From assembly GCA_030640255.1 (NCBI GenBank), contig DAOWJS010000028.1:1-34430 (forward strand): DNA of 34,430 nt, given 5' to 3'. Below the pieces are notes generated by a model that was not told the DNA's origin, did not search any database, and worked only from the letters and a program-made list of their open reading frames with translations. A program made the translations under genes and the position numbers. Below, piece by piece: positions 1 through 34,390 of the stretch (the stretch's first letter is position 1; each line of letters begins with the position of its first letter). This DNA is from Dehalococcoidales bacterium (GTDB lineage: Bacteria > Chloroflexota > Dehalococcoidia > Dehalococcoidales > GCA-2688105).

Positions 1-499
1 CGGCGGTTCCATCCTCAGTAACCGTAATGAGCTTTATTTTAGGCGGTAAAAGGAGGGTGGGGTAAAGCTGGGAGGCAGTGGAGGCGCCTATGAGTAGGGT
101 TACTGAGCATGCTTGGTTCAGCGCTTCCTGGGATAGAATGCATAATGGCGCAATACCAATGCCACCAGCTACCAGTAACAGGTTGTGAGCGTCAGGGTAA
201 ATAGAAAAGCCGTTACCTAGCGGTCCCAGCAGGTCTATTTTATTACCGACTTGGCGTTGAGATAGCCAGCGTGTGCCTTTGCCGACTACCGTGAAGAGGA
301 GAGCTAGTTTATTTTGGTTGGATAGCTGGTGGATACTCAGCGGGCGGCGCAGGAGGCATTCAGAGCCTTCGCCGCAGCGTACCATAACAAATTGTCCCGG
401 ACCTGCTGTTGAGGCTATCGGGGGGGATTCCAGCCAGATAAGATAAACCCCGGGCATAACTTCACTAGTAGAAATAATGGGAGCCACAGCTTGCTTCAA
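1..499 (-). CDS. pyrK: dihydroorotate dehydrogenase electron-transfer subunit PyrK (first ~166 codons; the 3' end runs off the window)
   Basis: Absent from the ORF track because it has no stop in the window. Manual minus-strand translation from TTG 499 (which overlaps the carB stop as TTGA) gives [89 protein letters not shown]. These are PyrK-type FAD/NAD-binding motifs. The position just after carB fits a pyr operon. Confidence 0.75.
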
Positions 500-3400
500 G
501 CTGGCTCCTTTCCCCGGTAGTCGGGCAGGGGTTGAGCGCTATAAATTTGGCTTCCGTTGGCAAGTGCCTCTACCGCAGCTCGAGCCGTATCCAGGGAGGT
601 AAAGCAGGAAACACGCCTCTCGGCAGCCGACCGACGGATTTGGAAACCATCTCTTAGCGGGACACGATCTCCGGTAACGGTATTGACGACGCCGTTTACT
701 GTTCCATCATTAATGATGTCAATAACATTGGGATGCCCCTCGCTCAATTTTTTGCTAATCATTTTTACCGGGAGTCCCGCCGCCTCAATCATAGCTGCTG
801 TGCCTTCGGTGGCATAGAGTTTGTAGCCTATTGAGGCGAACCTTCTGATTATAGGTAGCGCTTCGGGCTTATCTCGGTCAGCAATACTGAAAAGTATGGC
901 ACCTTGAGGCAGTAGCATTAGTCCCGCAGCTAGAAGTGCCTTGGCTAAGGCAGCATCAAAGGTGTAATCAATCCCCATTACCTCTCCGGTGGACTTCATT
1001 TCCGGACCAAGGTAGGTATCAACGCCAAGTAGTTTTGACATAGAGAAAACCGGGGCTTTAATGGCTACCAGTTCTTGCTTGGGCCACAGTCCGGTGTGGT
1101 AGCCCTGCTCCTTGAGGCTTTTACCCAGCATAACCTTGGTGGCCACTTTTACCATAGGTATACCGGTAACCTTGGAGAGAAAGGGGACGGTGCGGCTGGC
1201 CCTGGGGTTAACCTCTAATACATAGACCGAAGGCTCAGAACCGGGAGGTACTGATTCTGGATGAGGCATAATGACGAACTGGATGTTCATCAAGCCTTTA
1301 ATTTTGAGTGCCAGTCCCATCCTGATAGTATAGTCAACAATAGTTTCTACCTCTGGCTCGGTTAGATTTATCCCGGGATAGACGGCCATAGAGTCTCCAC
1401 TGTGGACTCCTGCCCGTTCAATATGCTCCATTATCCCGGGAATGAGAACACTCTCCCCGTCACCTATGGCGTCAACCTCTACCTCTTTTCCTTGCAGGTA
1501 TTTGTCAATAAGCACCGGGTGCTTGGTATCCAGTTCTATGGCTAGCTTCATATAGCGGACTAGCTCGCCGGCATTGTGAACTATTTCCATAGCTCTGCCG
1601 CCGAGGACATAGCTGGGGCGAACCAATACTGGATAACCGATAAGCTGAGCTACCTTGAGGGCTTCATCTACCGAGGTTACCCCGGCTCCCGGTGGTTGAG
1701 GAATGCCCAGCTCGTTGAGGAAGTTCTCAAATCGGCGCCTGTCCTCAGCCAGGTCAATAGCCTCAGCGCTGGAGCCGAGGAGAGGCATCCCGCTGCGAAA
1801 TAGGGGCTCAGCCAGGTTTATCGCCGTCTGACCTCCAAATTGGACTATAGACGGCGAGGGGGCATTGTCCGGTTGCCCGCTTTCATTTTCCAGGATGTCA
1901 CGCAGGCTTTCCTCATCCAGGGGTTCAAAGTAGAGGCGGTCACTGGTATCAAAATCGGTGGACACCGTTTCCGGGTTGGAGTTGACCATTATACTCTTGA
2001 AGCCAGACTCCTGCAGTGCCCAGGAAGAATGAACGCTACAGTAGTCAAATTCAATACCCTGCCCAATGCGGATAGGTCCGCTACCGATGACTATCGCCTT
2101 GTTTCCTTCAAGAGGCTCAGCCTCATTCTCCTGGTCGTAGGTGCTGTAGAAGTAAGGGGTGCCGGCGTCAAACTCAGCAGCACAGGTATCCACCATCTTG
2201 TAAACGGGACGGATTTGCCACTTGTGCCGCAACTCCCTTACCTGCTCGGTGAGTCTATCAGCCAGGGTTCCAATCTGCTCGTCAGAGAAGCCGAGCCGTT
2301 TTGCCCGCCGTAGAAGCTCTGGGGTCAGCGGCTTAGACAGGAGCCTCTTTTCCATATTAACAATGTTCTGGAGCTTATCCATAAACCACAGGTCAATCTT
2401 GGTGTGGTTGGATAGCTCTTGGGCAGTGAGCCCTCTTCTCAGGGCGGCCATTAGCGCCCATAATCTCAGGTCGTTAGGTTCCAGAAGGTAGGCATTGATA
2501 TCTGTTCCCATCTCCCAGGTGCGGTCTTCCCACAGTAGCGACCGGTTGCTAAACTCAAGGGAGCGAATCGCCTTCTGCAGAGCGGCTTCAAAACAGCGGT
2601 CAATAGCCATTACCTCGCCGGTGGCTTTCATCTGGGTGCCGATAACCCGGTCACCGGAGGCAAACTTATCAAACGGCCAGCGAGGAATCTTGACCACCAG
2701 GTAGTCCAGTGCTGGCTCGAAGGCAGCCATGGTTTTCCCGGTTATCTGGTTGGGGATTTCATCCAGCCTTTTGCCGACGGCTATCTTCGCCGCCACGCGG
2801 GCAATGGGATACCCGGTAGCCTTACTGGCTAGGGCGGAGCTTCGGCTGACCCTGGGGTTTACTTCAATCACATAATAATCATTGCTGTTAGGGTCGAGGG
2901 CGAACTGGATATTACAGCCGCCTTCAACTCCCAGGGCACGAATAATCTTGAGGCTGGCTGTCCGCAACATCTGGTGCTCTTTATTAGTCAGAGTCTGGCT
3001 GGGAGCCACCACGATGCTGTCGCCGGTATGAACCCCCATCGGGTCAATATTCTCCATATTGCAAACGGTGATGCAGTTATCGGCCCCGTCGCGCATTATC
3101 TCATACTCAATCTCTTTCCAGCCAATTACCGATTCTTCCAGCAGTATCTGGTGAATGGGACTGGCTGCCAATCCTACGGTTGCCGCATGGTCCAGCTCCT
3201 CCCAGGTATTGGCTACCCCGCCCCCAGTCCCCCCCAGGGTGTAAGCGGGGCGGATTATCAGGGGCAGACCTAAGTCCTTGGCTACCTTGGCGGCTTCTTT
3301 TAAGCTGGTTACGGTGGCGCTCTTCGGCACCGGCTCGCCGATATTGATTAGCATCTGCTTGAATAACTCGCGGTCTTCCGCCATTCTTATGGTTTGTATC

Positions 3401-3750
3401 GGTGTTCCCAGGCTTTTCATATTATATTTGTCTAAAACGCCGGCATCGGCTAAGTCCACCGCTAGATTAAGCCCGGTCTGACCACCGAGGGTGGGCAGTA
3501 GCCCATCGGGACGCTCCCGCTCAATAATGCGGGCGACCATTTCCACGGTGAGCGGCTCAATATAGATAATGTCGGCGATACCCTCATCGGTCATAATGGT
3601 TGCCGGGTTGGAGTTGACCAGCACCGAGGTTACCCCCTCCTCCCGCATCGCCTTGCACGCCTGGGTGCCGGCGTAGTCAAACTCCGCCGCCTGCCCGATA
3701 ACAATCGGCCCCGACCCAATAATTAATACTTTAGATGGTTTCTTGGTCAA
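496..3750 (-). CDS. carB: carbamoyl-phosphate synthase large subunit
   Basis: 1084-aa ORF with duplicated ATP-grasp halves ([21 protein letters not shown] and [19 protein letters not shown]) and an MGS-like C-terminal domain. TTG start at 3750 is preceded by AAGGAG 8 nt upstream. Lies downstream of carA. Confidence 0.97.
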
Positions 3751-4400
3751 GATGTGTGCTCCTTATAAAAGAAATGCGACCAGATGAGAATATCTAATAA
3801 GCGAAGAAGGGAAACGTCATACATATATTCATATTTAGTTGAAATAATCTGCTGTATCTTAGTTAATTCATCTTTGTTTGCATCTATATCTTTTTTTAGT
3901 TCGGAAATACACTTGATAGCCCAATCAGACTCGCTAGTCCATTTCTGGTCTATTATGATGGCTTTGCAGTAATCTATTTCCAATATACTATCAAGAATTG
4001 GTATTACATTTGGTAATTTCTTGTGCAGTATTTTTGTCTTTCTAGCAAGACTCAAATATTTTGTGTCGAATGCTTGTATTAATTCACCAATTTTACCCCA
4101 CGGTATCTTTTCAAAATCGTCAGAGATTTTTGTGTTGTAAGGAATTTTAGAGAGACAGGAGTTTATCTTATTTATTTTTTCAAGGAGCGGTTTAATTACA
4201 AGTGATTCATCATAATAAGGAATTCTAGCACCAAGACTATTACTGGCATCTATAGCCATAAGTATTTGTGCCTTGTTTAAGAAGCTGTTTGTAGGTAGTC
4301 TCATACTGTCATAATATCGGGCTCCGCTTTCCCTGTTCCAGTAATATTCAATTTTCTCAATAGGATTTGAAATCTGGATGTTATTTCTTAGTTTAATCAT
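3747..4400 (-). CDS. hypothetical protein, AT-rich orphan gene (possibly DUF6308-like)
   Basis: 217-aa ORF with a strong SD (AAGGAGGTGA) 5 nt upstream of ATG 4400. Its stop overlaps the carB TTG start (TTGA). By eye it is about one-third G+C, against about half in the flanks. The motifs [17 protein letters not shown] and [11 protein letters not shown] recall my memory of the DUF6308 family; this is not verified. Confidence 0.7.
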
Positions 4401-4420
4401 TACTTCACCTCCTTACCTTC

Positions 4421-4900
4421 ATCTTGTTCTACCTCACCCCCTTTGTCCCCCTCTCCTTCAAAGGAGAGGGGGAGGTTGGGTGTGGAGAGGGGCTTCGCCC
4501 CTCTCAGACTCCCCGTATTAAGTTCTGCCTCACTCGGACTCCCCTTAATCATATCTAGATGTTTCGTCCCTCTCAGGCTCTCCCCACATTCAAGCTTGGG
4601 AGGATTATCCTCTCGGACTCCCCGTATTTTGTTCCGTACCTTTAGGTTCTCCTAAATACTAAGGGTTCAACCCTCTCGGACTCCCCTTATTCAATTTTGT
4701 CTATCTCCCTCCACTCAGGTGGGTTATAGAGAGGTTCAACCTCCCTTTTTAACCATCTCCTTACCCATCAGGAGAGTTTTAGAGAGGCGAAGCCTCTCTT
4801 TTTACATCTTCCCCTTCCCCTTACCCAATCCCCAAGGGGAAGGGGATAAAGGGGATGGGGTTACCACTAAACAGGGGCGAAGCCCCCTAAAACTCCCTGT
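4421..4900. repeat. intergenic hairpin-repeat cluster A (cap, P1, P2, five CTCGGACTCCCC-tailed units, P3 and GGGGATGGGGTTACC)
   Basis: Cap (reverse complement) 4427-4443. P1 palindrome 4447-4472 (CCCCCTCTCCTT..AAGGAGAGGGGG). P2 4485-4505 (GAGAGGGGC-TTC-GCCCCTCTC). Tails end at 4514, 4544, 4585, 4623 and 4686. Hairpins at 4600-4612, 4662-4674, 4731-4743, 4781-4799 and 4874-4886. P3 arms at 4811-4822 and 4834-4845. Track ORFs in this stretch are low-complexity artefacts. Confidence 0.85.
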
Positions 4901-4902
4901 AT

Positions 4903-6000
4903 TCATTTCCCTCCCCTCACCATCTCCAGAAACTTTTCAAAGAGGTAGGTATTGTCCAGGGGGCCGGGGGAGGCTTCGGAGTGGTACTGGATGGAGAAGA
5001 TGGGTAGCTCCTTGTGACGCAAGCCTTCCACCGTACCGTCATTCAGGTTGATATGGCTTACCTCTAGACCATCTTTCAAGGTATCGGGGTCAACGGCGTA
5101 GCCGTGGTTCTGAGCGGTGATATGGATTCGCCCATCACTCAGGTCGCGGACGGGGTGGTTACCGCCGCGATGACCAAACTTCAGCTTGAAGGTCTTGGCA
5201 CCGAATACCCTGCCCAGAATAAGGTGTCCCATACAGATGCCCATTATTGGCTTTTTACCGACAAGTTTCTTAATCGTATCTACTATGTAATCCAGCACTT
5301 CGGGGTTACCCGGACCCGGGGAGAGGAGAATACCGTCGGGCTTCAGGTTCAAGATTTCATCGGCAGTCATGGTGCAGGGCACCGCAGTTACCCGGCAGCC
5401 GTGACCACACATCATGCGCAGTATGCTGTATTTCAAGCCGCAGTCCAGGACGACTATTTTACATGGCGGTGAGGCTGCCTGGCCCGGTTCTGGTTCCCAT
5501 TGATAGGGGGCGTTGGTGGTAACCTGCTTGACGAAATCGGTGGAGCCATAGCCGGGTACTTTCAGCAGTTGCTCCATAGCCTGCTGGGGAGTTTTATCGC
5601 TGGTAATAATGCCCATCATTACCCCGGCCGAGCGGAGTTTGCGGGTGATAGCCCGGGTATCCACGCCACTTATTCCCGGTATGCCATTTTCGACTAGGTA
5701 TTCATGGAGGGTGCCGGTGCTCAGGTAGTGGTTGGGTTGGTAGCACTCCTCCCTGACCACAAAGCCTCTAACCTGGACTTTGTCCGACTCAAAATCCTGC
5801 TCATTTATGCCGTAATTGCCGATAAGGGGGTAGGTGGGAACCACAATCTGTCCGGCGTAGGAGGGGTCGGTTAGCGTTTCCTGATACCCGAACATACTGG
5901 TGTTGAAAACCACCTCACCACAGGCATCAGCCTCAGTCCCAAAGGCATAACCTTCATAAACTGAGCCATCGGCTAAGACTAGTATTGCTTTTTTAGTCAT
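4903..6000 (-). CDS. carA: carbamoyl-phosphate synthase small (glutamine amidotransferase) subunit
   Basis: 365-aa ORF. The N-terminal CPSase small-chain domain begins AILVLADGSVYEGYAFG. Class I GATase motifs are present (PIMGICMGHLIL, then HRGGNHPV and NHGYAV). Confidence 0.97.
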   Translation of the reverse strand: MTKKAILVLADGSVYEGYAFGTEADACGEVVFNTSMFGYQETLTDPSYAGQIVVPTYPLIGNYGINEQDFESDKVQVRGFVVREECYQPNHYLSTGTLHEYLVENGIPGISGVDTRAITRKLRSAGVMMGIITSDKTPQQAMEQLLKVPGYGSTDFVKQVTTNAPYQWEPEPGQAASPPCKIVVLDCGLKYSILRMMCGHGCRVTAVPCTMTADEILNLKPDGILLSPGPGNPEVLDYIVDTIKKLVGKKPIMGICMGHLILGRVFGAKTFKLKFGHRGGNHPVRDLSDGRIHITAQNHGYAVDPDTLKDGLEVSHINLNDGTVEGLRHKELPIFSIQYHSEASPGPLDNTYLFEKFLEMVRGGK

Positions 6001-6007
6001 ATTAGGC

Positions 6008-6333
6008 TTTATCTACCTCACCCCCTTAGGTTTTTATTAGGTAACCCTATCCCCTTTAGTCACTTGATTTGGTGACCCTCCCCCTTTTGTCCCCCTCCCT
6101 TGTTAAGGGAGGGGGAAATTGGTTGTGTGAGAGGGGCGGTGCCCCTCTCTGACTCCCCTTCGAGCTTCCCCGTTAACGGGGGAAGATTTTCTCTGAAGAG
6201 GGGCTTTGCCCCTCTTAAACCCCCCTTCACTATTTTCTTCTTCAAAGGAGAGGGGAGGTATGGGTTTCGGGGGAGCTTCGCCCCTCCAAGCTTCCCCTCA
6301 GAAAATAAATTCCTTATAGAGGCTTTGCCTCTC
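6008..6333. repeat. intergenic hairpin-repeat cluster B (same family and same order as cluster A)
   Basis: Cap (rc) 6008-6028. GGTAACCCTATCCCCTTTAG 6040-6059. P1 6091-6115. P2 6129-6149 with tail TGACTCCCC 6150-6158. Further GC hairpins at 6165-6185, 6196-6216, 6269-6287 (degenerate) and 6318-6332. The stretch 6091-6158 aligns almost base for base with 4447-4514. Confidence 0.85.
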
Positions 6334-6335
6334 CT

Positions 6336-7669
6336 TTAATATTTCCCCTTCGCCTCAACTTTAATTGAGTCATCCTTATAAACTAGCTTTCCCCGGGCTA
6401 TGGTTGCCATTACCATCCCTTTAAGCACTGAGCCAGCCCAAGGGGTATTCTTGCCCTTTGAGGCAAAGGTCTTGGTATCTACCACCCATTCCCTCCCAGG
6501 GTCAAAGATGGTAATATCGGCTGAAGCACCAATAGCTAGTGTGCCCAGTTTTTCATATTTATCACCAATAATCTTTGATGGTTCATAAGTGAGCTTGGCG
6601 ATGAGGGTAGTCAGAGTTAGCTGTCCATCGTGCACTAAACTCATCAGGCTGCCCAAGGCGGTCTCAAATCCACTGATGCCAAAGGGGGCCAGGGCAAACT
6701 CACACCGTTTATCGGCCTCAGTGTGAGGGGCGTGGTCGGTAGCAATAATGTCAATTACATTCTCTTTGAGCCCTTGAATTAATGCTTGGACGTCTCTTCC
6801 GGTTCTTAGCGGTGGATTTACCTTAGCGTTGGTATCATAGCCTATTACCCTATCCTCGGTGAGGGTCAGGTGGTGTGGGGTGACCTCGGCAGTAACCCGG
6901 ATGCCTTTTTCTTTGGCACGACGAATAAGCTCAACCGAGCCTTCAGTGGTAACATGGGCAATGTGTAGCCGACCTCCGGTGAGTTGAGCCAGAGCCAGGT
7001 CACGGGCAACTATAATATCTTCAGCGGCATTAGGTATGCCACGAAGCCCTAATCTGGCTGAGGTTACGCCCTCATTCATCACTCCGCCCTCGGTGAGGGC
7101 AGTATCCTCACAGTGGTCAGTAATCGGCAGGTCCAGGTCGCGGCTACAGTCCAGTGCCTGGCGCATAAGGCGTGAATTCAGAGCTGGTTCACCATCATCA
7201 CTAAAGGCAATCACCCCGGCTGAAGCCAGTTCGTCTAGTTCAGCTAGCTCCGCTCCCTTTCTTTCTTTAGAAATACAGCCTATAGGCAGAACGCGAACCA
7301 CGCCTTCGGTGGCTGCCGTTGATTTGACATAATTTATGGCAGCTTGATTGTCCAGGGGTGGGTTGGTATTAGCCATACAGCAGATAGTGGTAAAGCCGCC
7401 TCTGGCTGCGGCTTGAGTGCCGGTGGCAATGGTTTCCTTCTCTTCAAACCCCGGCTGCCTCAGGTGACAGTGAAGGTCAACAAACCCGGGGCAGACTATC
7501 AGTCCCTGGGCATTAAGGACTTCATACTCGGGGTGGGGTGGGGTTATTTCCCCTCTGCCCAGCCATGAGATTTTGCCGTTGCTGATGAGCAAACTACCGA
7601 TTTCATCGAGCCCCTGGCTGGGGTCGATTATGCGACCGCCATGGATAAGCAAGGAAACTGCTTTGATAT

Positions 7670-7673
<4 letters not shown>
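6336..7673 (-). CDS. pyrC: dihydroorotase
   Basis: 445-aa ORF with the amidohydrolase metal motif DLHCHLRQPG and the later ATDHAPH. Its start overlaps the pyrB stop as ATGA. Confidence 0.95.
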
Positions 7674-9765
<2,092 letters not shown>

Positions 9766-12352: not shown

Positions 12353-14527
12353 ATGGATATTCTGGCTGAGCTTAATCCGGCGCAGAGGGAAGCCGTAGAG
12401 GCAATCGGTGGTCCGGTGCTAATTCTAGCCGGCCCGGGCAGTGGTAAAACCAGGGTTATTGCCCATCGGGTGGCTTACCTGGTCAAGGTTTGCCGGGTTA
12501 GCCCTCGCCGAATTATGGCGGTTACCTTCACCAATAAAGCCGCCCGGGAAATGGAGACAAGGCTTCACCGGCTGGTCAGCGGCTCGGTAAGAGATTTAAC
12601 CCTGGGCACCTTTCACGCCATTTGCGCCCGTATCCTGCGCCGGGAGGGCAAGGCGATAGGTATTGACCCCCGGTTTGTCATCTATGACGAAGAGGACCAG
12701 CTCAGCCTGCTCAAGCGCAGTATTCAGGAAGCAGGGCTTGACCCCAAGCAGTATGCCCCTCGGGCGATACGGTCAGCTATTACCTCAGCTAAGAGTCGCT
12801 TGTTAACCCCTCAAGACTATCTTGAGAGTAGCCGTAGCTATTTTGAGGAGGTAGCGGGGAGGGTCTATGAACGCTACCAGCAGCTGCTAACGGCAAGCAG
12901 TGCCCTTGATTTTGACGACCTGTTAATGAAAGCGGTGCAGCTATTTAAGCAAAGCCCCGAGATTTTGTCTCGGTATCAAGAAAGATACCTCCATCTCCTG
13001 GTAGACGAGTTTCAGGACACCAACCTGACCCAATATGAGCTAGTAAAGCAACTGGCGGGCAAGTATCGCAATATCTGTGTGGTTGGCGACCCCGACCAGT
13101 CAATCTACTCGTGGCGGTTTGCCGATTTGCGTAATATCCTTAACTTTGAGAAGGATTACCCTGAGGCTAAATTGGTGTTGCTGGAGCAGAACTATCGCTC
13201 GACCAAGCTGATTCTGGAAACGGCATCCTACATCATCTCCGCCAATCAGCAGCGCAAACCCAAGGAACTGTGGACAGATAATGAGCCGGGTGAGCTAACT
13301 ACGGTGGTGGAGACCTATACCGAGCAGGAAGAAGCCCAGTTTGTGGTTAGTGAGGTAGAGCGCCTGGTAGGTCGGGGGGAGGTTAATCGTGGCGACTGTG
13401 CGGTAATGTATCGCACCAATGCCCAGTCCCGAGCTCTGGAGGAGGCTTTTGTTCGCTATGGGGTGCCCTATAAGCTGGTGGCGGGCACCCGCTTCTATGA
13501 GAGGCGAGAGATTAAGGATATTATTGCCTATCTCCGGCTTATCCAGAACTCTTATGATTCGGTTAGCCTGCTGAGGATAATCAATGTCCCCCAGCGTGGC
13601 ATCGGGCAGCGTAGTCTGAGCCAGCTATCTAACCGGGCAAGGTCGGCGGGTGTCCCCGAGTATAGGGCGTTACAGCTTATCGCTGAGCCAACCGATAAAC
13701 CGTCGCCTCCCTTTAGCTCTCGTATCAGTCGGGCAATGGCTGGCTTTGTAAACTTGATGGAGGGGCTTATTGCCCGCAGTCGGGAGCTAAACCTGGTTGA
13801 TTTACTGGACTTGGTTATTGAAAGCTCTGGCTATAAGGAATATATACTGGGTGGACTGGATGGAGAGGAGCGCTGGGAGAATATCCTTGAGCTGCGCACT
13901 GTAGCCGGGCAGTATCGTGATTTGACGCCGCGGGATGGTTTAGCCGCCTTTCTGGAAGGGGTAACCCTGGTATCCGATGTTGATGGGCTTGATGAAAGTG
14001 TGGATGCGGTAACCCTGATTACCCTGCATCAGGCTAAGGGTCTGGAGTTCCCGGTAGTGTTCATTGTTGGTATGGAAGACGGTATCCTGCCCCATTTTAA
14101 GTCGTTTGACGACCCAGGGCAGATGGAGGAGGAGCGGCGGTTGTGCTATGTCGGGGTAACCCGAGCCAAGCAGAGGGTGTATCTAATCCGTGCCTTCCGC
14201 CGCAGCCTGATGGGAAGCAGCACCGTAAATAGACCCTCCCGCTTCTTAAGCGATATTCCGTCGCATTTGATAACCGGGGGTGCTTTGTGGGAGGGGGAAG
14301 ATAGCCTGGCGGCTACGGCGATGTACTCCTGGAATAGGGCTTCTGCCCCCAGCTTGGCAGTTACGGAGTTAAAGGCGGGCGACCACATCCGCCATGCTGA
14401 GTTCGGCGACGGGGTGGTGGTGAGCTGCCAGCCGGTAAAGGATGATGAGGAGGTAGTGATTGCTTTCGCCGGCGTCGGAGTAAAAAGGCTCCTTCTCAGC
14501 TATGCCAATCTGGAGAAGGTGGAGTAA
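12353..14527 (+). CDS. pcrA: ATP-dependent DNA helicase PcrA/UvrD
   Basis: 724-aa ORF with SF1 helicase motifs: AGPGSGKT, TFTNKAAREM, LLVDEFQDTN, VGDPDQSIYSWR, YRS, TLHQAKGLEF and YVGVTRA. Confidence 0.95.
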   Translation: MDILAELNPAQREAVEAIGGPVLILAGPGSGKTRVIAHRVAYLVKVCRVSPRRIMAVTFTNKAAREMETRLHRLVSGSVRDLTLGTFHAICARILRREGKAIGIDPRFVIYDEEDQLSLLKRSIQEAGLDPKQYAPRAIRSAITSAKSRLLTPQDYLESSRSYFEEVAGRVYERYQQLLTASSALDFDDLLMKAVQLFKQSPEILSRYQERYLHLLVDEFQDTNLTQYELVKQLAGKYRNICVVGDPDQSIYSWRFADLRNILNFEKDYPEAKLVLLEQNYRSTKLILETASYIISANQQRKPKELWTDNEPGELTTVVETYTEQEEAQFVVSEVERLVGRGEVNRGDCAVMYRTNAQSRALEEAFVRYGVPYKLVAGTRFYERREIKDIIAYLRLIQNSYDSVSLLRIINVPQRGIGQRSLSQLSNRARSAGVPEYRALQLIAEPTDKPSPPFSSRISRAMAGFVNLMEGLIARSRELNLVDLLDLVIESSGYKEYILGGLDGEERWENILELRTVAGQYRDLTPRDGLAAFLEGVTLVSDVDGLDESVDAVTLITLHQAKGLEFPVVFIVGMEDGILPHFKSFDDPGQMEEERRLCYVGVTRAKQRVYLIRAFRRSLMGSSTVNRPSRFLSDIPSHLITGGALWEGEDSLAATAMYSWNRASAPSLAVTELKAGDHIRHAEFGDGVVVSCQPVKDDEEVVIAFAGVGVKRLLLSYANLEKVE

Positions 14528-14538
14528 TCAAGGGTAGA

Positions 14539-14623
14539 TTGAAGGGGCGAAGCCCCTTCAAAACCCATCCTTCCCCCTCTCCTTTGAAGGAGAGGGGGAT
14601 AAAGGGGGTGAGGTAGATAAAAC
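14539..14623 (+). repeat. hairpin-repeat unit C (P2 - P1 - cap)
   Basis: TTGAAGGGGC-GAA-GCCCCTTCAA at 14539-14561. CCCCCTCTCCTT-TG-AAGGAGAGGGGG at 14573-14598. ATAAAGGGGGTGAGGTAGATAAAAC at 14599-14623. It is collinear with 19641-19727 and with the reverse complement of 4427-4514. Confidence 0.85.
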
Positions 14624-14638
14624 ATTCCTCAATAACTA

Positions 14639-14667
14639 TTGACATTTTACACGGAAGCGTGTATAAT
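14639..14667 (+). promoter_or_regulatory. consensus sigma70-type promoter of mutL (near-leaderless)
   Basis: Perfect TTGACA (14639-14644), a 17-nt spacer, then TATAAT (14662-14667). ATG 14676 follows after 8 nt with no SD. Confidence 0.65.
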
Positions 14668-14675
14668 TAACTATT

Positions 14676-16388
14676 ATGCCTATCAGAGTTTTAGACCCCA
14701 AGGTAGTATCCCGGATTGCCGCCGGGGAGGTGGTGGAGCGGCCGGCCTCGGTGGTGAAGGAGCTGGTGGAGAACTCGCTGGATGCCGGCTCATCCCAGAT
14801 TTCCATTGAGGTCAGGGGTGGTGGGGTAAGCTTAATTAGGGTGATGGATAACGGGGTGGGCATTCCCCCGGGGGAGGTAGAGCTTGCCTTTGCCCGTTAT
14901 GCTACCAGCAAGGTAGGCAGCTTAGAGGATTTGGAGTCTATTTCCAGCCTCGGCTTTCGGGGGGAGGCGTTACCCAGTATCGCCACCGTGGCTGAGGTAG
15001 ACATGGTTACCTGTGCTGCCGGCGAGACGGCAGGCACTTACCTTAGCCTTAAGGACGGCGTTGCCGTTGGTCGGGGAAGCCGGGGACGCTCCCCGGGGAC
15101 GACGATTACGGTGCGGGGTCTATTCCGCAAGCTGCCGGCAAGGTTAAAGTTCCTTAAGTCGCCAGCTACGGAAAATAGCCATATTGCCCAGGTGATAAGT
15201 CAGTATGCCCTTGCCTTCCCCGAGGTCAAATTTACCTTGTTTATTGAGGGCAGGATGGCGCTAACCACGGCAGGTAGTGGTCGGCTAATAGATAGTGTGA
15301 CTCAAGTTCATGGCTTAGAGGTAGCCCAGAATATGCTGGAGATTAAGAATAGGGGGTGGCAGGGCGGGGCAGCAATGGCATCACCCCTGGTAACCGGTAT
15401 GGTAGGCTCGCCGGCAATAAGCCGTTCCCATCGGGGTTACCTCAGCCTCTTTGTCAATCGCCGCTGGATAAACAGCCGACTGGTGGCTCGGGCAGTGGAG
15501 GAGGCTTATCACGGGCTTTTGATGCTGGGGAAACATCCGGTGGCTATCATCAATATTTCACTACCTCCTGAGGAGGTGGATATTAATATTCACCCCACCA
15601 AAATAGAGGTGAAGTTCAGTAACGAGCACATAGTTTTTACCGCTGTCCAGAGGGCAGTCCGACAGGTTTTAATTGAACTGGTGCCGGTGCCTAAGATTGA
15701 GGAGGTAGCTACCACCTATACCTCACCATCACCGCCACGACAAGTATCGTGGCTCTCAGCCGTAGGTGGTGATAGCCTTACTGGTGCGGCGCCGGTAGCT
15801 TCTCAGACACCTACCGTTTCACTGCCGGCACTACGAATACTGGGTCAGCTCTTGAGTAGCTATATTATAGCCGAGGGTCCCGATGGGTTGTATCTTATCG
15901 ACCAGCATGCCGCCCATGAGCGCGTCCTTTTTGAAAAGATAAAATTGCAGCGGTCACGGCAAGAGGTAGAAGTTCAAGGGCTACTTGAACCGGTAACCTT
16001 TGAGGTTAATCCCCAGCAGGAGGAAGTTCTAAAATCACACTATGAAAATCTAGCCGAATTCGGTTTCACCATTGAGCCTTTTGGTGATAGAACCTATCTC
16101 GTCAGGGCGGTGCCAGTTCTGCTTTATGACCAAGATTGGGTGGGAATGCTGAGGGAGTTACTGGATTCCTTATCTGGGGAGGATAAGGATGACTGGGGGG
16201 AAAAGGTAGCTATCTCCATCGCCTGCCACAGTGCGGTAAGGGCTGGGCAGACATTAACTAATGACGAAATGCGCCAACTTATACGGCAACTGGAGCAGGT
16301 AGCCCTTCCCCATACCTGTCCCCATGGCCGACCAACCATGGTTCGTCTCAGCTCGGGACAGCTGAAAAAGGAGTTTGGTAGAAGCTAA
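14676..16388 (+). CDS. mutL: DNA mismatch repair protein MutL
   Basis: 570-aa ORF. The GHKL ATPase N-terminus reads IAAGEVVERPASVVKELVENSLDAG and DNGVGI. The C-terminal dimerisation/endonuclease region includes DQHAAHERVLFE. Confidence 0.95.
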   Translation: MPIRVLDPKVVSRIAAGEVVERPASVVKELVENSLDAGSSQISIEVRGGGVSLIRVMDNGVGIPPGEVELAFARYATSKVGSLEDLESISSLGFRGEALPSIATVAEVDMVTCAAGETAGTYLSLKDGVAVGRGSRGRSPGTTITVRGLFRKLPARLKFLKSPATENSHIAQVISQYALAFPEVKFTLFIEGRMALTTAGSGRLIDSVTQVHGLEVAQNMLEIKNRGWQGGAAMASPLVTGMVGSPAISRSHRGYLSLFVNRRWINSRLVARAVEEAYHGLLMLGKHPVAIINISLPPEEVDINIHPTKIEVKFSNEHIVFTAVQRAVRQVLIELVPVPKIEEVATTYTSPSPPRQVSWLSAVGGDSLTGAAPVASQTPTVSLPALRILGQLLSSYIIAEGPDGLYLIDQHAAHERVLFEKIKLQRSRQEVEVQGLLEPVTFEVNPQQEEVLKSHYENLAEFGFTIEPFGDRTYLVRAVPVLLYDQDWVGMLRELLDSLSGEDKDDWGEKVAISIACHSAVRAGQTLTNDEMRQLIRQLEQVALPHTCPHGRPTMVRLSSGQLKKEFGRS

Positions 16389-19615: not shown

Positions 19616-19640
19616 TTAGTGAGGTCATTTATCAGGGAAG

Positions 19641-19727
19641 TTTGAAGGGGTGAAACCCCTTCAAAACCTATACGTCCCTTCTCCCTTGAAGAAGAGGGGA
19701 AGTAAGGAGGTGAGGTTGATAAATAAA
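19641..19727 (+). repeat. hairpin-repeat unit D (P2 - degenerate P1 - cap)
   Basis: TTTGAAGGGGT-GAA-ACCCCTTCAAA at 19641-19665. A degenerate P1 at 19676-19702. TAAGGAGGTGAGGTTGATAAATAAA at 19703-19727. The architecture matches unit C. Confidence 0.8.
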
Positions 19728-19743
19728 CCCTTAATTTATAGAA

Positions 19744-20244
19744 ATGTGCGAAACTAACATCGAACTATTTAAGGAGGTTCTAGTGAAGAGAACTTTTTTG
19801 ATAGGTATGGTATTAATTCTGATGCTCTTCCTGTTGCCTTCCTGCGCTGCTGGAGTATCTCAGGAAGAGTATGACAGGGTAACTAGCGACCTTGCTGTAG
19901 CTCAGACCCAAATTCAATCATTGGAAGGTGATTTGACCGAAGCAGAAGCACAAATTCAGTCCTTACAGACCGACAAAGAGGTCTCAGAGGAAAAGCGTGC
20001 GGAAGCATTGGCTTATGCCGAGTTCGTCGATGTGCTTCTGTGGCCAGCTTGGAAGAAAGCTGGGATTACTCCCCGCTTCGCATTTGAAGATGAGGTTGAC
20101 TGGCTGGTAGAGCTAAAGAACAGAGCCAGTGACCTAGGAGATACAAAATTAAGTAACTATATTAAGGGATTGGATGAAGCCGCCACATTAGTTGCTCTAT
20201 ATGATTATTGCCTTGGAAGGATAGTAGAGAAAACCCTAAAGTGA
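19744..20244 (+). CDS. hypothetical coiled-coil lipoprotein or secreted protein
   Basis: The likely true start is GTG 19783, which has AAGGAGG 6 nt upstream. The signal peptide ends LLPSC. There is a short coiled-coil repeat (AQTQIQSLEGDL / AEAQIQSLQTD). The gene is inserted between ribE and ribBA. Confidence 0.65.
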   Translation: MCETNIELFKEVLVKRTFLIGMVLILMLFLLPSCAAGVSQEEYDRVTSDLAVAQTQIQSLEGDLTEAEAQIQSLQTDKEVSEEKRAEALAYAEFVDVLLWPAWKKAGITPRFAFEDEVDWLVELKNRASDLGDTKLSNYIKGLDEAATLVALYDYCLGRIVEKTLK

Positions 20245-22466: not shown

Positions 22467-22894
22467 TTAGCAACCTATCCCCCTGACCCCCTTCCCTTAA
22501 TAAAAGATTGTTAAACAACCCCTCACCCTTTATCCCTCTCCCCTTATGAAGGGGAGAGGGAAGAGAAATTCTCAAAGGGGCTTCGCCCCTTTTAATCCCC
22601 TTTGCTAAAAACTCTTAATAAGAGGGGGAGTGTAGGTAAGAGAGGGGCTTCGCCCCTCTCTAAAATCTCTTCTTTGAAATATATAGGAAGTCTAAGCGGG
22701 GCTAACGCCCCTCTGTTTTACTCCTTCCCCCTCTCCTTTAAAGGAGGGTCAAAGGGAGGCGAAGCCTCCCTTATATAAGCTCCCCTTCCCCTTATCAAGG
22801 GGAAGGGGATAAAGTCCTTGCCTGCTTTGGCAAGGATAAAGGGGATAGGGTTACCTAATAGAAATCTAAGGGGGTGAGGTTAATAAACAATCTC
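22467..22894. repeat. intergenic hairpin-repeat cluster E (mosaic of all module types, with cap-like modules facing outward at both ends)
   Basis: Left end: rc-type modules at 22467-22491 and 22505-22535. P3 at 22534-22560. P2 copies at 22574-22592, 22639-22661, 22698-22711 and 22752-22772. Degenerate P1 at 22727-22748. P3 at 22782-22808. Inserted hairpin at 22815-22836. GATAAAGGGGATAGGGTTACC at 22835-22855. Cap at 22866-22894. Confidence 0.85.
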
Positions 22895-22906
22895 AATATT
22901 TGACCT

Positions 22907-22935
22907 TTGACATACCATTACCTGTCACCTATAAT
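22907..22935 (+). promoter_or_regulatory. consensus sigma70-type promoter abutting the cluster E cap
   Basis: Perfect TTGACA (22907-22912), a 17-nt spacer, then TATAAT (22930-22935). A second TATAAT lies at 22945-22950. The RBS GGAGGGTGA lies at 22957-22965, before TTG 22969. Confidence 0.6.
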
Positions 22936-34141: not shown

Positions 34142-34171
34142 ATTATAGTGCCTTGAGGCTCATCTTGGCAA
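34142..34171 (-). promoter_or_regulatory. candidate promoter of the MFS gene (short leader), abutting cluster F
   Basis: The minus strand reads TTGCCA (34166-34171), an 18-nt spacer, then TATAAT (34142-34147). Fifteen nt with no SD lie before ATG 34126. The repeat end GGGTTAAACAATCTC lies 5 nt upstream of the -35 box. Confidence 0.5.
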
Positions 34172-34176
34172 TCTAA

Positions 34177-34390
34177 GAGATTGTTTAACCCTATCCCCTG
34201 TATCCCCTTCCCCTTATCAAGGGGAAGGGGAGATAATTTCTTTAGAGGGGCTACGCCCCTCTAAAACTCTCCCATTATTGCTCCAGAGTAAGGAGAGTTA
34301 AAGAGAGGCTTCGCCTCTCTTATATAACTAATTCCCCTTCCCCTTATCAAGGGGGAAGGGGATAAAGGGGATGGGGTTACCAAATAAAAA
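34177..34390. repeat. intergenic hairpin-repeat cluster F (two P3-bearing units with imperfect inverted ends)
   Basis: Left end GAGATTGTTTAACCCTATCCCCTGTAT at 34177-34203. P3 at 34204-34230. P2 at 34242-34264. AGAGAGGC-TTC-GCCTCTCT at 34302-34320. P3 at 34334-34361. ATAAAGGGGATGGGGTTACC at 34362-34381. Confidence 0.85.

Follow-up and report, generated by a model that had tools for sequence, protein, structure and literature searches.

Several families of short interspersed repeats have been described in bacterial genomes. BOX elements of Streptococcus pneumoniae follow the scheme boxA-boxB(n)-boxC, form hairpins, are co-transcribed with their neighbours, can affect expression and are present in hundreds of copies per small genome. 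Repetitive extragenic palindromes (REPs) and the bacterial interspersed mosaic elements (BIMEs) of Enterobacteria and Pseudomonas likewise reach high copy numbers, and REPs stabilise mRNA 3' ends inside operons. The Correia elements (CREE) of Neisseria carry terminal inverted repeats, duplicate a TA target and supply expression signals and RNA processing sites. In Neisseria gonorrhoeae, carA and carB are reportedly separated by a large, kb-sized and strain-variable spacer that is rich in repeats. Here, we describe a repeat-filled spacer in the pyrimidine operon of a member of the Dehalococcoidales, an order that is abundant in subsurface and marine sediments, almost wholly uncultured and equipped with small, compact genomes. 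The spacer lies at 4401-4902, directly downstream of carA, in a stretch of 34,430 nucleotides (contig DAOWJS010000028.1 of assembly GCA_030640255.1), which we call the window. We consider it rather likely that this spacer is a mosaic cluster of a hitherto undescribed modular interspersed repeat family, that it sits at the upstream edge of a clade-wide variable gene slot, and that its roles would be exerted at the level of RNA.

Results

The carA spacer is a mosaic of modular repeat units

The modules found in the spacer belong to a unit of about 95 nt. In its own orientation, from 5' to 3', the unit opens with a head GGRGAGTY, which is followed by a first hairpin H1 with the consensus AAGAGRGGC-GAA-GCCYCTCTT, an A/T-rich linker, a second hairpin that is either H2 (TTCCCCTTCCCCTT-ATCA-AAGGGGAAGGGGA) or P (CTCCCCCTCTCCTT-TGAA-GGAGAGGGGGA), and a G-rich tail that is either T (TAAAGGGGATRGGGTTACC) or the Shine-Dalgarno-like S (TAAAGGGGGTGAGGTAGA). 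A sister form has P and S in place of H2 and T. Because the covariance models R1 and R2 cross-hit, H1-H2-T and H1-P-S are taken as two versions of one architecture. An original prediction, made from the letters of this DNA alone, had pointed to five copies of CTC(A/G)G(A/G)CTC(T)CCCC in the spacer, and these are borne out. A scan for the 12-mer CTCRGRCTCCCC with at most one mismatch gives six matches in the window (4503-4514, 4533-4544, 4572-4583, 4612-4623, 4675-4686 and 6147-6158), five in the carA spacer and one between pyrC and carA; shuffled sequences hold 0.74 on average and 3 at most, and none out of 100 reaches six. For the copy at 4572-4583, the longer variant noted originally extends to 4585. 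The motif had been regarded as the tail of a hairpin, which has to be reversed. In the form CTCGGACTCCCC it is the reverse complement of a head plus the first bases of H1, and on the minus strand, which is the coding strand of the operon, it reads GGGGAGTCYGAGAGG and stands 5' of the hairpin, as does the family consensus GGRGAGTY-N-AAGAGRGGC. The motif is a head, not a tail, and belongs to the minus strand. The array had been assigned to 4421-4900; this part is indeed filled with repeats, but the whole interval is 4401-4902. Its sense elements are one complete unit, four solo heads in decay and another solo H1, and its antisense elements are one complete and one degenerate unit. In the order in which the operon is read, these are:

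4866-4902, minus: U0, a solo H1 directly after the carA stop, with head CAGGGAGTT and a GGGGGC-TTC-GCCCC stem
4769-4865, plus: complete antisense H1-H2-T unit, with H1 at 4781-4799, H2 at 4810-4846 and T tail AAAGGGGATGGGGTTACC at 4848-4865
4715-4751, plus: degenerate second antisense H1, a 78% direct repeat of 4768-4804 that folds no better than shuffles
4659-4690, minus: U1, solo head GGGGAGTCCGAGAGGGTTGAACCCTTAG, hairpin decayed (z -0.9)
4598-4627, minus: U2, solo head GGGGAGTCCGAGAGGATAATCCTCCC with a 5-bp stem (z -1.7), common to the relative L109
4560-4589, minus: U3, solo head GGGGAGAGCCTGAGAGGGACGAAACA, hairpin lost (z +1.5), common to L109
4520-4548, minus: U4, solo head GGGGAGTCCGAGTGAGGCAGAACTT, hairpin lost (z +1.0), common to L109
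4428-4523, minus: U5, complete sense H1-P-S unit, with the head ending at 4514, H1 at 4485-4505, P at 4446-4473 and S tail AAAGGGGGTGAGGTAGA at 4428-4445

U5 is the top covariance-model match of the window (R1, 104.3 bits, E 3e-26), and the antisense unit at 4769-4865 reaches 89.4 bits with R2 (E 1e-21) and 76 bits with nhmmer. Four relatives (L109, L021, L115 and L150) have U5 at the same position, orthologous copies of the antisense unit, and a conserved U0, the 6-bp stem of which is itself weak (-10 kcal/mol, z -0.5).

The hairpins listed in the original prediction exist where it placed them, and its description of different states of decay is apt. The stem at 4485-4505 is a perfect 9-bp helix with a 3-nt loop (-22.2 kcal/mol, z -3.7), that at 4781-4799 has 8 bp (-13.2 kcal/mol, z -2.4), and the hairpins then named P1/P2 (4446-4473, 12 bp, -26 kcal/mol, z -2.3) and P3 (with GGGGATGGGGTTACC, 4805-4865, -33.4 kcal/mol, z -2.15) are real. 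In contrast to these, the stems at 4600-4612, 4662-4674, 4731-4743 and 4874-4886 have 5-6 bp and are no better than shuffles (z -1.7, -0.9, +0.35 and -0.5), and no hairpin remains at the copies that end at 4544 and 4585. When the minus-strand RNA is folded, as had been proposed as a check, the entire spacer is more stable than its shuffles (z -4.8); the same holds for the plus strand (z -7.5), and strong folding on both strands is what palindromic repeats would be expected to show. Tandem Repeats Finder detects nothing regular in the spacer apart from a 6-nt CTTCCC run at 4808-4826, because the heads are irregularly spaced, with distances of 63, 38, 41 and 30 nt between their starts.

The window is metagenomic, and an identical carA sequence is present on scaffold_1272 of ENA ERZ23498683. 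A second public assembly (L001) is 99.785% identical, with 32 single-nucleotide polymorphisms over 14.9 kb and no gaps; all of the differences lie elsewhere and the spacer is identical. In L109, a 64.8-kb contig with a carA 94% identical to that of the window, the four proximal heads U2-U5 are conserved together with P and S at 95% identity. An assembly collapse or chimera, which had been named as a possible refutation, is thereby set aside. In further relatives (L021 and L115), whose carA is 84-86% identical, the antisense unit is accompanied by just one head followed by P and S. L109 combines U2-U5 with a different complete unit upstream, the window has U1-U5, and U1 finds no aligned counterpart in L109, which has its different unit there. 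Heads of the window and of L109 carry the same peculiar GAGTCCGAG/GAGCCTGAG variants. Since L109 shares four heads and L021 and L115 have one, the heads were amplified locally in the lineage of the window and L109 and decayed afterwards, and the head module itself comes from a genome-wide family. The idea of local duplication and decay of one module is thus supported for the heads, most of which are decayed, but the module is lineage-wide and the spacer is a mosaic with both orientations.

A 50-aa gene is called in the public assembly across heads U4-U5 and P-S (window 4400-4552, minus; L001:11449-11601). It is most likely an artefact of the gene caller, because its only relatives are translations of the same repeats at other loci.

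The units form a lineage-wide family

The AAAGGGGATRGGGTTACC pattern was scanned in one genome per species. It occurs in more than 107 stretches, nearly all of them from metagenome-assembled genomes (MAGs) of Dehalococcoidales or Dehalococcoidia, and their flanks align into one conserved unit. The remainder consists of a few matches to coding DNA of unrelated bacteria, which are due to chance, and of those on two contigs labelled Deltaproteobacteria. These two (L025 and L070, from binned MAGs) contain genuine H1-H2-T units and are either mis-binned Dehalococcoidales contigs or cases of element transfer. A strict regular expression for whole units caught only 21 copies and was replaced by nhmmer profile searches, which give 372 non-overlapping units in 1.24 Mb of Dehalococcoidales DNA, or about one per 3-4 kb, with 12 in the window. 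About 10 of the window's units are full, and all strong covariance-model matches fall in six intergenic regions. Apart from the carA spacer, the modules recur in five further regions of the window (6001-6335, 14528-14620, 19630-19720, 22470-22890 and 34170-34385), with the following content:

6001-6335, minus: sister cluster in the pyrC-carA spacer, with units at 6071-6167 and about 6162-6306, a T tail at 6040-6058 and an S tail at 6015-6031, followed by the carA ATG
14522-14618, plus: H1-P-S unit between a uvrD-like gene and mutL (R1, 101.8 bits), followed by a TTGACA-17-TATAAT promoter
19625-19720, plus: H1-P-S unit between ribE and an extra open reading frame (ORF) of the rib operon (R1, 79.1 bits)
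22470-22890, both strands: cluster in a divergent intergenic region, with units at 22514-22611 (minus) and 22734-22818 (plus) and solo hairpins
34167-34381, both strands: two full H1-H2-T units back to back, each aimed at its own flanking gene start (R2, 89.5 and 102.5 bits)

At gathering thresholds, Rfam 15 returns only tRNA, both in the window and in 135 kb of unit-rich loci of relatives, and the best scores below threshold are 26.8 bits for Poribacteria-1 (threshold 74.2) and 21.1 bits for GA-cis (threshold 34.7). MicroRNA and snoRNA families that appear at permissive thresholds are generic hairpin matches and not credible. The possibility that the spacer is a leader of a known RNA class, raised at the outset as another refutation, is met by the fact that no Rfam family fits it. 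Our literature search found no earlier description of these Dehalococcoidales repeats. We conclude that they constitute a hitherto undescribed family among the short modular interspersed repeats, a known kind of element of which BIME and BOX are examples, and that the array in the carA spacer is ordinary for this family.

In the riboflavin operon (ribD, ribE, ribBA and ribH), the region 19625-20244 of the window holds the unit and then a 166-aa ORF between ribE and ribBA, which has a lipobox (LPSC) and no Pfam match. The rib operon is the second housekeeping operon in which a unit is accompanied by an inserted gene. Perfect TTGACA-17-TATAAT promoters lie directly after unit tails at about 14652-14680 and 22907-22935. 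The genes starting at 12353, 14676 and 34126 have a TATAAT box some 7 nt before their ATG, which suggests leaderless mRNAs.

Structure and orientation of the units

Six of the eight H1 base pairs change on both sides (47 cells), with 98.8% of cells paired; none of 500 shuffles reaches the observed values and slid controls remain far lower. At one position, for instance, 40 sequences have G-C and 27 have A-U. The H1 stem is therefore maintained through compensatory changes. H2 and P show no covariation and are nearly invariant in sequence, as is the core of T across many species-level MAGs. For H2 and P, such invariance says nothing on pairing and points to a sequence-specific constraint. One-sided changes in these hairpins, read on the unit's own strand, give U-G in 35 cells and C-A in 8, an excess that would fit pairing or transcription of the sense strand and, among related sequences, is only suggestive. 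The sense strand of H2 plus T (e.g. 4834-4865 and 34350-34381) also reads GGGG-AA-GGGG-ATAAA-GGGG-AT(A/G)-GGG(G), a canonical four-tract G-quadruplex motif that competes with the H2 hairpin formed by the upstream CCCCTTCCCC arm, and a switch between hairpin and quadruplex is possible.

Orientation was counted at 107 loci independent of the pyr operon, where 227 of 233 units lie outside ORFs. Units point in the direction of the downstream gene by 162 to 46 (p 2e-16) but show no such agreement with the upstream gene (109 to 83, p 0.07). T and S tails counted alone behave in the same manner. In the window, nine of ten full units are aimed at the start of a co-oriented gene, the exception being the antisense unit at 4769-4865. 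Some units adjoin start codons and others lie just upstream of consensus promoters.

These properties have to be weighed against the view that the repeats are selfish or neutral DNA, that is, miniature non-autonomous elements or products of gene conversion, with an orientation bias left by the removal of harmful insertions and a spacer that has become an insertion-tolerant junkyard. At the pyrC-carA junction of 68 relatives the spacer ranges in a graded series from -13 nt (overlapping genes) to 345 nt with 0-4 units, which indicates that units come and go. Such free variation among close relatives, the decay of most heads in the array and the accumulation of units at the same permissive sites are what neutral repeats would produce. 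Retention of the H1 stem by compensatory changes, the near-invariance of H2, P and the T core, the orientation with downstream genes and the persistence of the same unit at orthologous sites in several species speak against it, although constraint on structure and orientation could equally serve the element's own propagation and does not prove a host function. On balance, we regard this explanation as unlikely, but as one that deserves serious consideration.

The pyrimidine operon and a variable slot between carA and carB

The operon that contains the spacer is encoded on the minus strand and is organized as follows:

9078-9668, minus: pyrR (Pfam)
7670-9091, minus: pyrB with a fused PyrI C-terminal domain (Pfam)
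6336-7673, minus: pyrC (Pfam)
4903-6000, minus: carA, left flank of the slot (Pfam CPSase_sm_chain and GATase)
4401-4902, minus (operon strand): repeat spacer from carA to the DUF6308 gene
4401-4427, minus: 27-nt leader of the DUF6308 gene, defined by sequence
3747-4400, minus: inserted AT-rich gene of the DUF6308 family, 217 aa (Pfam PF19827, E 9e-13)
496-3750, minus: carB, right flank of the slot (Pfam CPSase_L domains)

It had been stated that carA and carB are normally adjacent and are separated here by the array and an orphan gene. Among the relatives this does not hold. In a sample of 80 metagenomic loci with carA 79-94% identical to that of the window, plus L021, all 52 complete junctions have a gap of 518-1909 bp between carA and carB with a GC content of 0.34-0.45. 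Between one and four ORFs, all on the sense strand, occupy the gap; clustering divides them into many unrelated groups, with Pfam matches to CAP12/Pycsar TIR, AbiJ_NTD4 (with a weak Abi_C match), Schlafen/AlbA_2 (SLFN), DUF559, GIY-YIG and DUF6308; other ORFs have no match. Examples among L109-L188 and L021 are L116:2211-3290, L109:7579-8487 and L143:6513-7406. Every relative examined has a different low-GC gene here, and several of these genes encode domains of the abortive-infection or TIR type. With no integrase in the vicinity, the carA-carB junction has the appearance of a variable-gene slot within a core biosynthetic operon.

The gene in the window's slot does lie between spacer and carB as described, but it is no orphan. 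It encodes a DUF6308 protein, and an ortholog 84.6% identical (tblastn) occupies the same slot in L138, the sole other relative with DUF6308. Searches of PADLOC, NCBIfam and PDB sequences with this protein gave no match. Its GC content is 32.7%, compared to about 0.52 in the neighbouring genes, and its stop overlaps the TTG start of carB. It has a Shine-Dalgarno sequence of its own, AAGGAGGTGA, with the core at 4408-4412, 7 nt ahead of the ATG at 4400. The leader at 4401-4427, which contains the 5-codon mini-ORF ATG AAG GTA AGG AGG TGA, might have arisen from the carA 3' end by duplication and degeneration; the similarity is weak in the window and clearer cases are seen in relatives. It is missing in L138, where the ATG comes directly after S.

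Several features of the slot recall a recombination site, and P-S, with or without H1, might accordingly be read as a mark of the point at which accessory genes are inserted or swapped, in the manner of integron attC/attI sites or through homology-driven replacement. Homology between the window and L109 stops immediately after GGTGAGGTAGA and resumes at carB, the gene in between being different. In L138 the same 32-nt P-S stretch stands with 100% identity ahead of the DUF6308 gene in a different upstream context, a GIY-YIG mini-element with no head array. Loci with two cassettes (L123, L125, L174 and L021) have P-S ahead of each of them, 9 of 52 junctions have a copy of the carA 3' end behind S, and the rib operon provides the second pair of unit and extra ORF. 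The carA copies are a footprint of insertion or recombination at the gene end. However, units also stand ahead of mutL, carA and other core genes, and hundreds of ordinary intergenic regions contain them as well. No repeat is seen at the carB end of the slot, where the cassette stops adjoin or overlap the carB Shine-Dalgarno sequence and start, and core sites of attC are absent. The window contains no integrase or transposase, and ordinary homologous recombination through carA and carB can explain the exchange. A role of the units as recombination sites therefore seems improbable to us. For a mosaic repeat cluster at the slot edge, it is of note that many cassette ORFs begin 3-10 nt after S, so that S could act as their ribosome-binding site.

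Further observations concern the proteins of the operon and its relatives. The aspartate carbamoyltransferase gene pyrB (7670-9091) encodes a catalytic-regulatory fusion with a C-terminal PyrI_C domain (regulatory chain, metal-binding). Just after the carA stop, eight relatives (L138:2970-3365, L121, L125, L128, L130, L156, L165 and L172) have genes for 95-aa GIY-YIG nucleases flanked by inverted repeats TGTCATTGCGAGG...CTCGCAATGACA; the same inverted-repeat ends are found gene-free in many other loci, and the combination looks like a separate small mobile-element family. In 11 relatives DUF559 (Vsr-like) genes are found at the GIY-YIG position. The slot proteins of L021:5442-6383 and L116:2211-3290 have in common an N-terminal domain of about 105 aa, followed by varying C-terminal parts that are TIR-like or membrane-associated. 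In the L021 protein the join is GEGDKGGEVEKM, an in-frame translation of the right arm of P and the S repeat, and the L116 linker is similar but diverged, which makes repeat-mediated gene fusion or domain shuffling possible. L128 and L130 have ATAATAAAAAGGCAATC at the position aligned with the carA ATG and lack a nearby in-frame ATG, GTG or TTG; their start codon could be unusual or shifted, or there could be a sequencing issue.

Small RNA, PyrR and purely local explanations

The antisense unit invites the idea of one or more independent small RNA genes, with 4769-4865 on the plus strand (H1 followed by TTTTT) giving an antisense or trans-acting RNA. It is kept at the exact place in several relatives, a terminator-like site lies at 4781-4799 on the plus strand, and this strand folds strongly. 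Yet the T-run follows H1, which is the first module and not the end of the unit, no promoter-like site is found upstream on the plus strand, and no Rfam family matches at threshold. As the family points with its downstream genes, the antisense copy is of the minority orientation. We consider a small RNA gene very improbable.

The location in a pyrimidine operon suggests a different alternative, in which the five heads (AGUCCGAGAGG), by their likeness to the core of the PyrR binding loop, provide additional PyrR sites or decoys. A genuine PyrR site is present in the pyr leader (9667-9762, minus; RF00515, 49.2 bits, E 6e-6, slightly below the gathering threshold of 54 bits), and this site or attenuator has a core CCUUUAAGCUAGUCC(A/G)GAGAGGCUGGCAAGG that is conserved in relatives. 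In the window its core AGUCCCGAGAGGCU differs from the heads by one extra C, and a head variant AGTC-N-GAGAGG is common in the pyr-operon spacers of relatives and rare elsewhere. This enrichment is explained by shared descent of orthologous copies, and the head follows the family consensus AGTY-NN-AGAGRG, which also stands beside unrelated genes. RF00515 has no match in 4400-4720 (321-nt query, E up to 10) or in 4350-6400 (E up to 5). Moreover, GAGAGG of the head pairs downstream into H1, so that the upper stem AGUC/GGCU cannot form. The heads were rejected as PyrR sites on the grounds of both covariance model and fold, and we give this reading hardly any credence. Next to none is left for a purely local tandem duplication of a unique module or an assembly artefact, despite the irregular direct repeats within the spacer and a head copy number that differs among relatives, because five further intergenic regions of the window and hundreds of loci in other genomes contain these modules, and because a second assembly has the spacer in identical form and a third has it with 95% conservation; as a complete explanation, local duplication is refuted.

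Discussion

The arrangement that in our view best accounts for these data is a mosaic of repeats at the edge of a gene slot that works, if it does, as part of an mRNA. The spacer would be co-transcribed with the pyr operon, since the minus strand of 3500-6500 has no terminator-like site between carA and carB, and a single carA-carB transcript is plausible. Hairpins with T-runs (4731-4743, 4781-4799 and others) are seen in 3500-6500 on the plus strand only. H1 was discarded as an intrinsic terminator of the coding strand because it has no T-run there, and so was a sigma-70 promoter in the array: one weak 9/12 match exists on the minus strand (4576-4548), and the region has fewer such sites than its shuffles. 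Within such a transcript, the intact hairpins might serve as RNA punctuation that provides stability, processing or insulation between cistrons, and the S tail might offer a ribosome-binding region to whichever gene lies downstream, a role with which the spacing in many relatives agrees. Heads that have decayed are probably relics without function. The gene after S is exchanged between relatives, with the repeats and carB staying in place.

Several points weigh against this interpretation. Co-transcription and any role at the RNA level are inferred from sequence features. In the window, S is some 30 nt away from the DUF6308 start and is not the operative ribosome-binding site of this gene, because a closer and better Shine-Dalgarno sequence lies in between; in front of carA, 13-15 nt separate the S and T tails from the ATG, a distance greater than that of a typical Shine-Dalgarno sequence. 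Four of the five heads have no hairpin, so that most of the array may be inactive. A strict promoter pattern follows about 10% of tails, compared to 0.4% of background windows, and units that precede promoters sit upstream of the transcription start of their target gene and not in its 5' untranslated region. The orientation statistics are based on crude longest-ORF gene calls, and half of the loci were found via the T tail itself, which makes the conservation of T partly a matter of construction. A mobilising enzyme was found neither among the 26 ORFs of the window nor among 849 ORFs from 700 kb that were clustered around units, where only housekeeping orthologues recur; units may spread through a trans-acting transposase, gene conversion or recombination.

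A more far-reaching scheme, which we put forward as speculation and consider quite unlikely, would see the units as portable homology and expression adaptors that turn junctions of essential operons (carA|carB, perhaps ribE|ribBA) into integrase-free slots. Promoterless and often defence-like genes (TIR, AbiJ, Schlafen-like, DUF6308) would be captured there, expressed from housekeeping promoters and swapped between strains, with P-S acting as a recurrent left breakpoint and ribosome-binding region.

A repeat that is found about every 3-4 kb and is orientation-locked to the downstream gene would be a major unannotated feature of Dehalococcoidales genomes. It misleads gene callers, as the 50-aa ORF across the array illustrates, it may shape operon expression, and it probably fragments assemblies, because many matches lie at contig ends. 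The clade-wide variable slot in the pyr operon is the part most worth following up and may matter more than the array. If its genes are true defence genes expressed from a core biosynthetic operon, they would be an accessible natural catalogue of candidate defence genes in an uncultured phylum, and the slot would be an example of a variable slot without integrase.

Comparison with known repeat and cassette systems

Like REP and BIME, the Dehalococcoidales family consists of many short extragenic palindromes that are combined with other motifs into mosaics. A conserved GTAG or CGTC tag at one end of the palindrome defines the REP superfamilies (PMC3733652). The foot of the H1 stem has neither; in the alignments it is flanked by GGRGAGTY-N on the 5' side and by T/A-rich sequence on the 3' side. 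Inverted doublets of the REPIN type are not the rule, the orientation instead following the downstream gene, and a REP-associated tyrosine (Y1) transposase (RAYT) is absent from the 26 window ORFs, the ORF clusters near units in the 700 kb being housekeeping. With Correia elements the family would share small repeats that are co-transcribed with genes, if the co-transcription proposed here is right. In contrast to these and to miniature inverted-repeat transposable elements (MITEs), the ends of the unit (GGRGAGT... and ...GGGTTACC or ...GGTGAGGTAGA) are not complementary, so that terminal inverted repeats are lacking. Inverted repeats detected in the window lie between separate units, and the pair at 34167-34381 consists of two entire units. 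Among the pyrC-carA junctions there are both filled and empty ones, with flanks too diverged to call a target-site duplication.

The slot resembles integron cassettes, and the variable hot spots between core genes that carry defence genes and have no integrase, in that promoterless, unrelated and often defence-like ORFs are lined up in one orientation with a structured repeat between them and a promoter upstream. The attC core sites R'' (RYYYAAC) and R' (GTTRRRY) are absent, however, and GTTACCT of the T tail departs from GTTRRRY; the palindromes of H2 and P are perfect, with no extrahelical base, and IntI is not present in the window. In addition, the repeat stands 5' of each ORF and also at core-gene junctions, and the slot lies inside an essential biosynthetic operon. 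To the PyrR binding site (RF00515) there is a likeness in the linear core AGUCC(C)GAGAGG and in the operon itself, but the fold is another one and the covariance model finds no match. Assignment to attC, MITE or REP was thus rejected, since their defining features are lacking.

In architecture, the units are like BOX in being short, modular, intergenic hairpin repeats of which one module varies in copy number, a likeness that lies in the architecture only. Across relatives, a single locus has between one and five heads in front of one P-S, and the pyrC-carA junction has 0-4 units. The two families differ in phylum and apparently in sequence, and the module amplified here is the first one, head plus H1, in irregular and truncated copies. 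The Dehalococcoidales units, in turn, have at their end a G-rich tail that resembles a Shine-Dalgarno sequence, and their orientation follows the downstream gene. A final parallel is the carA-carB spacer of Neisseria, which is said to be non-coding; the Dehalococcoidales slot, in contrast, carries protein-coding cargo.

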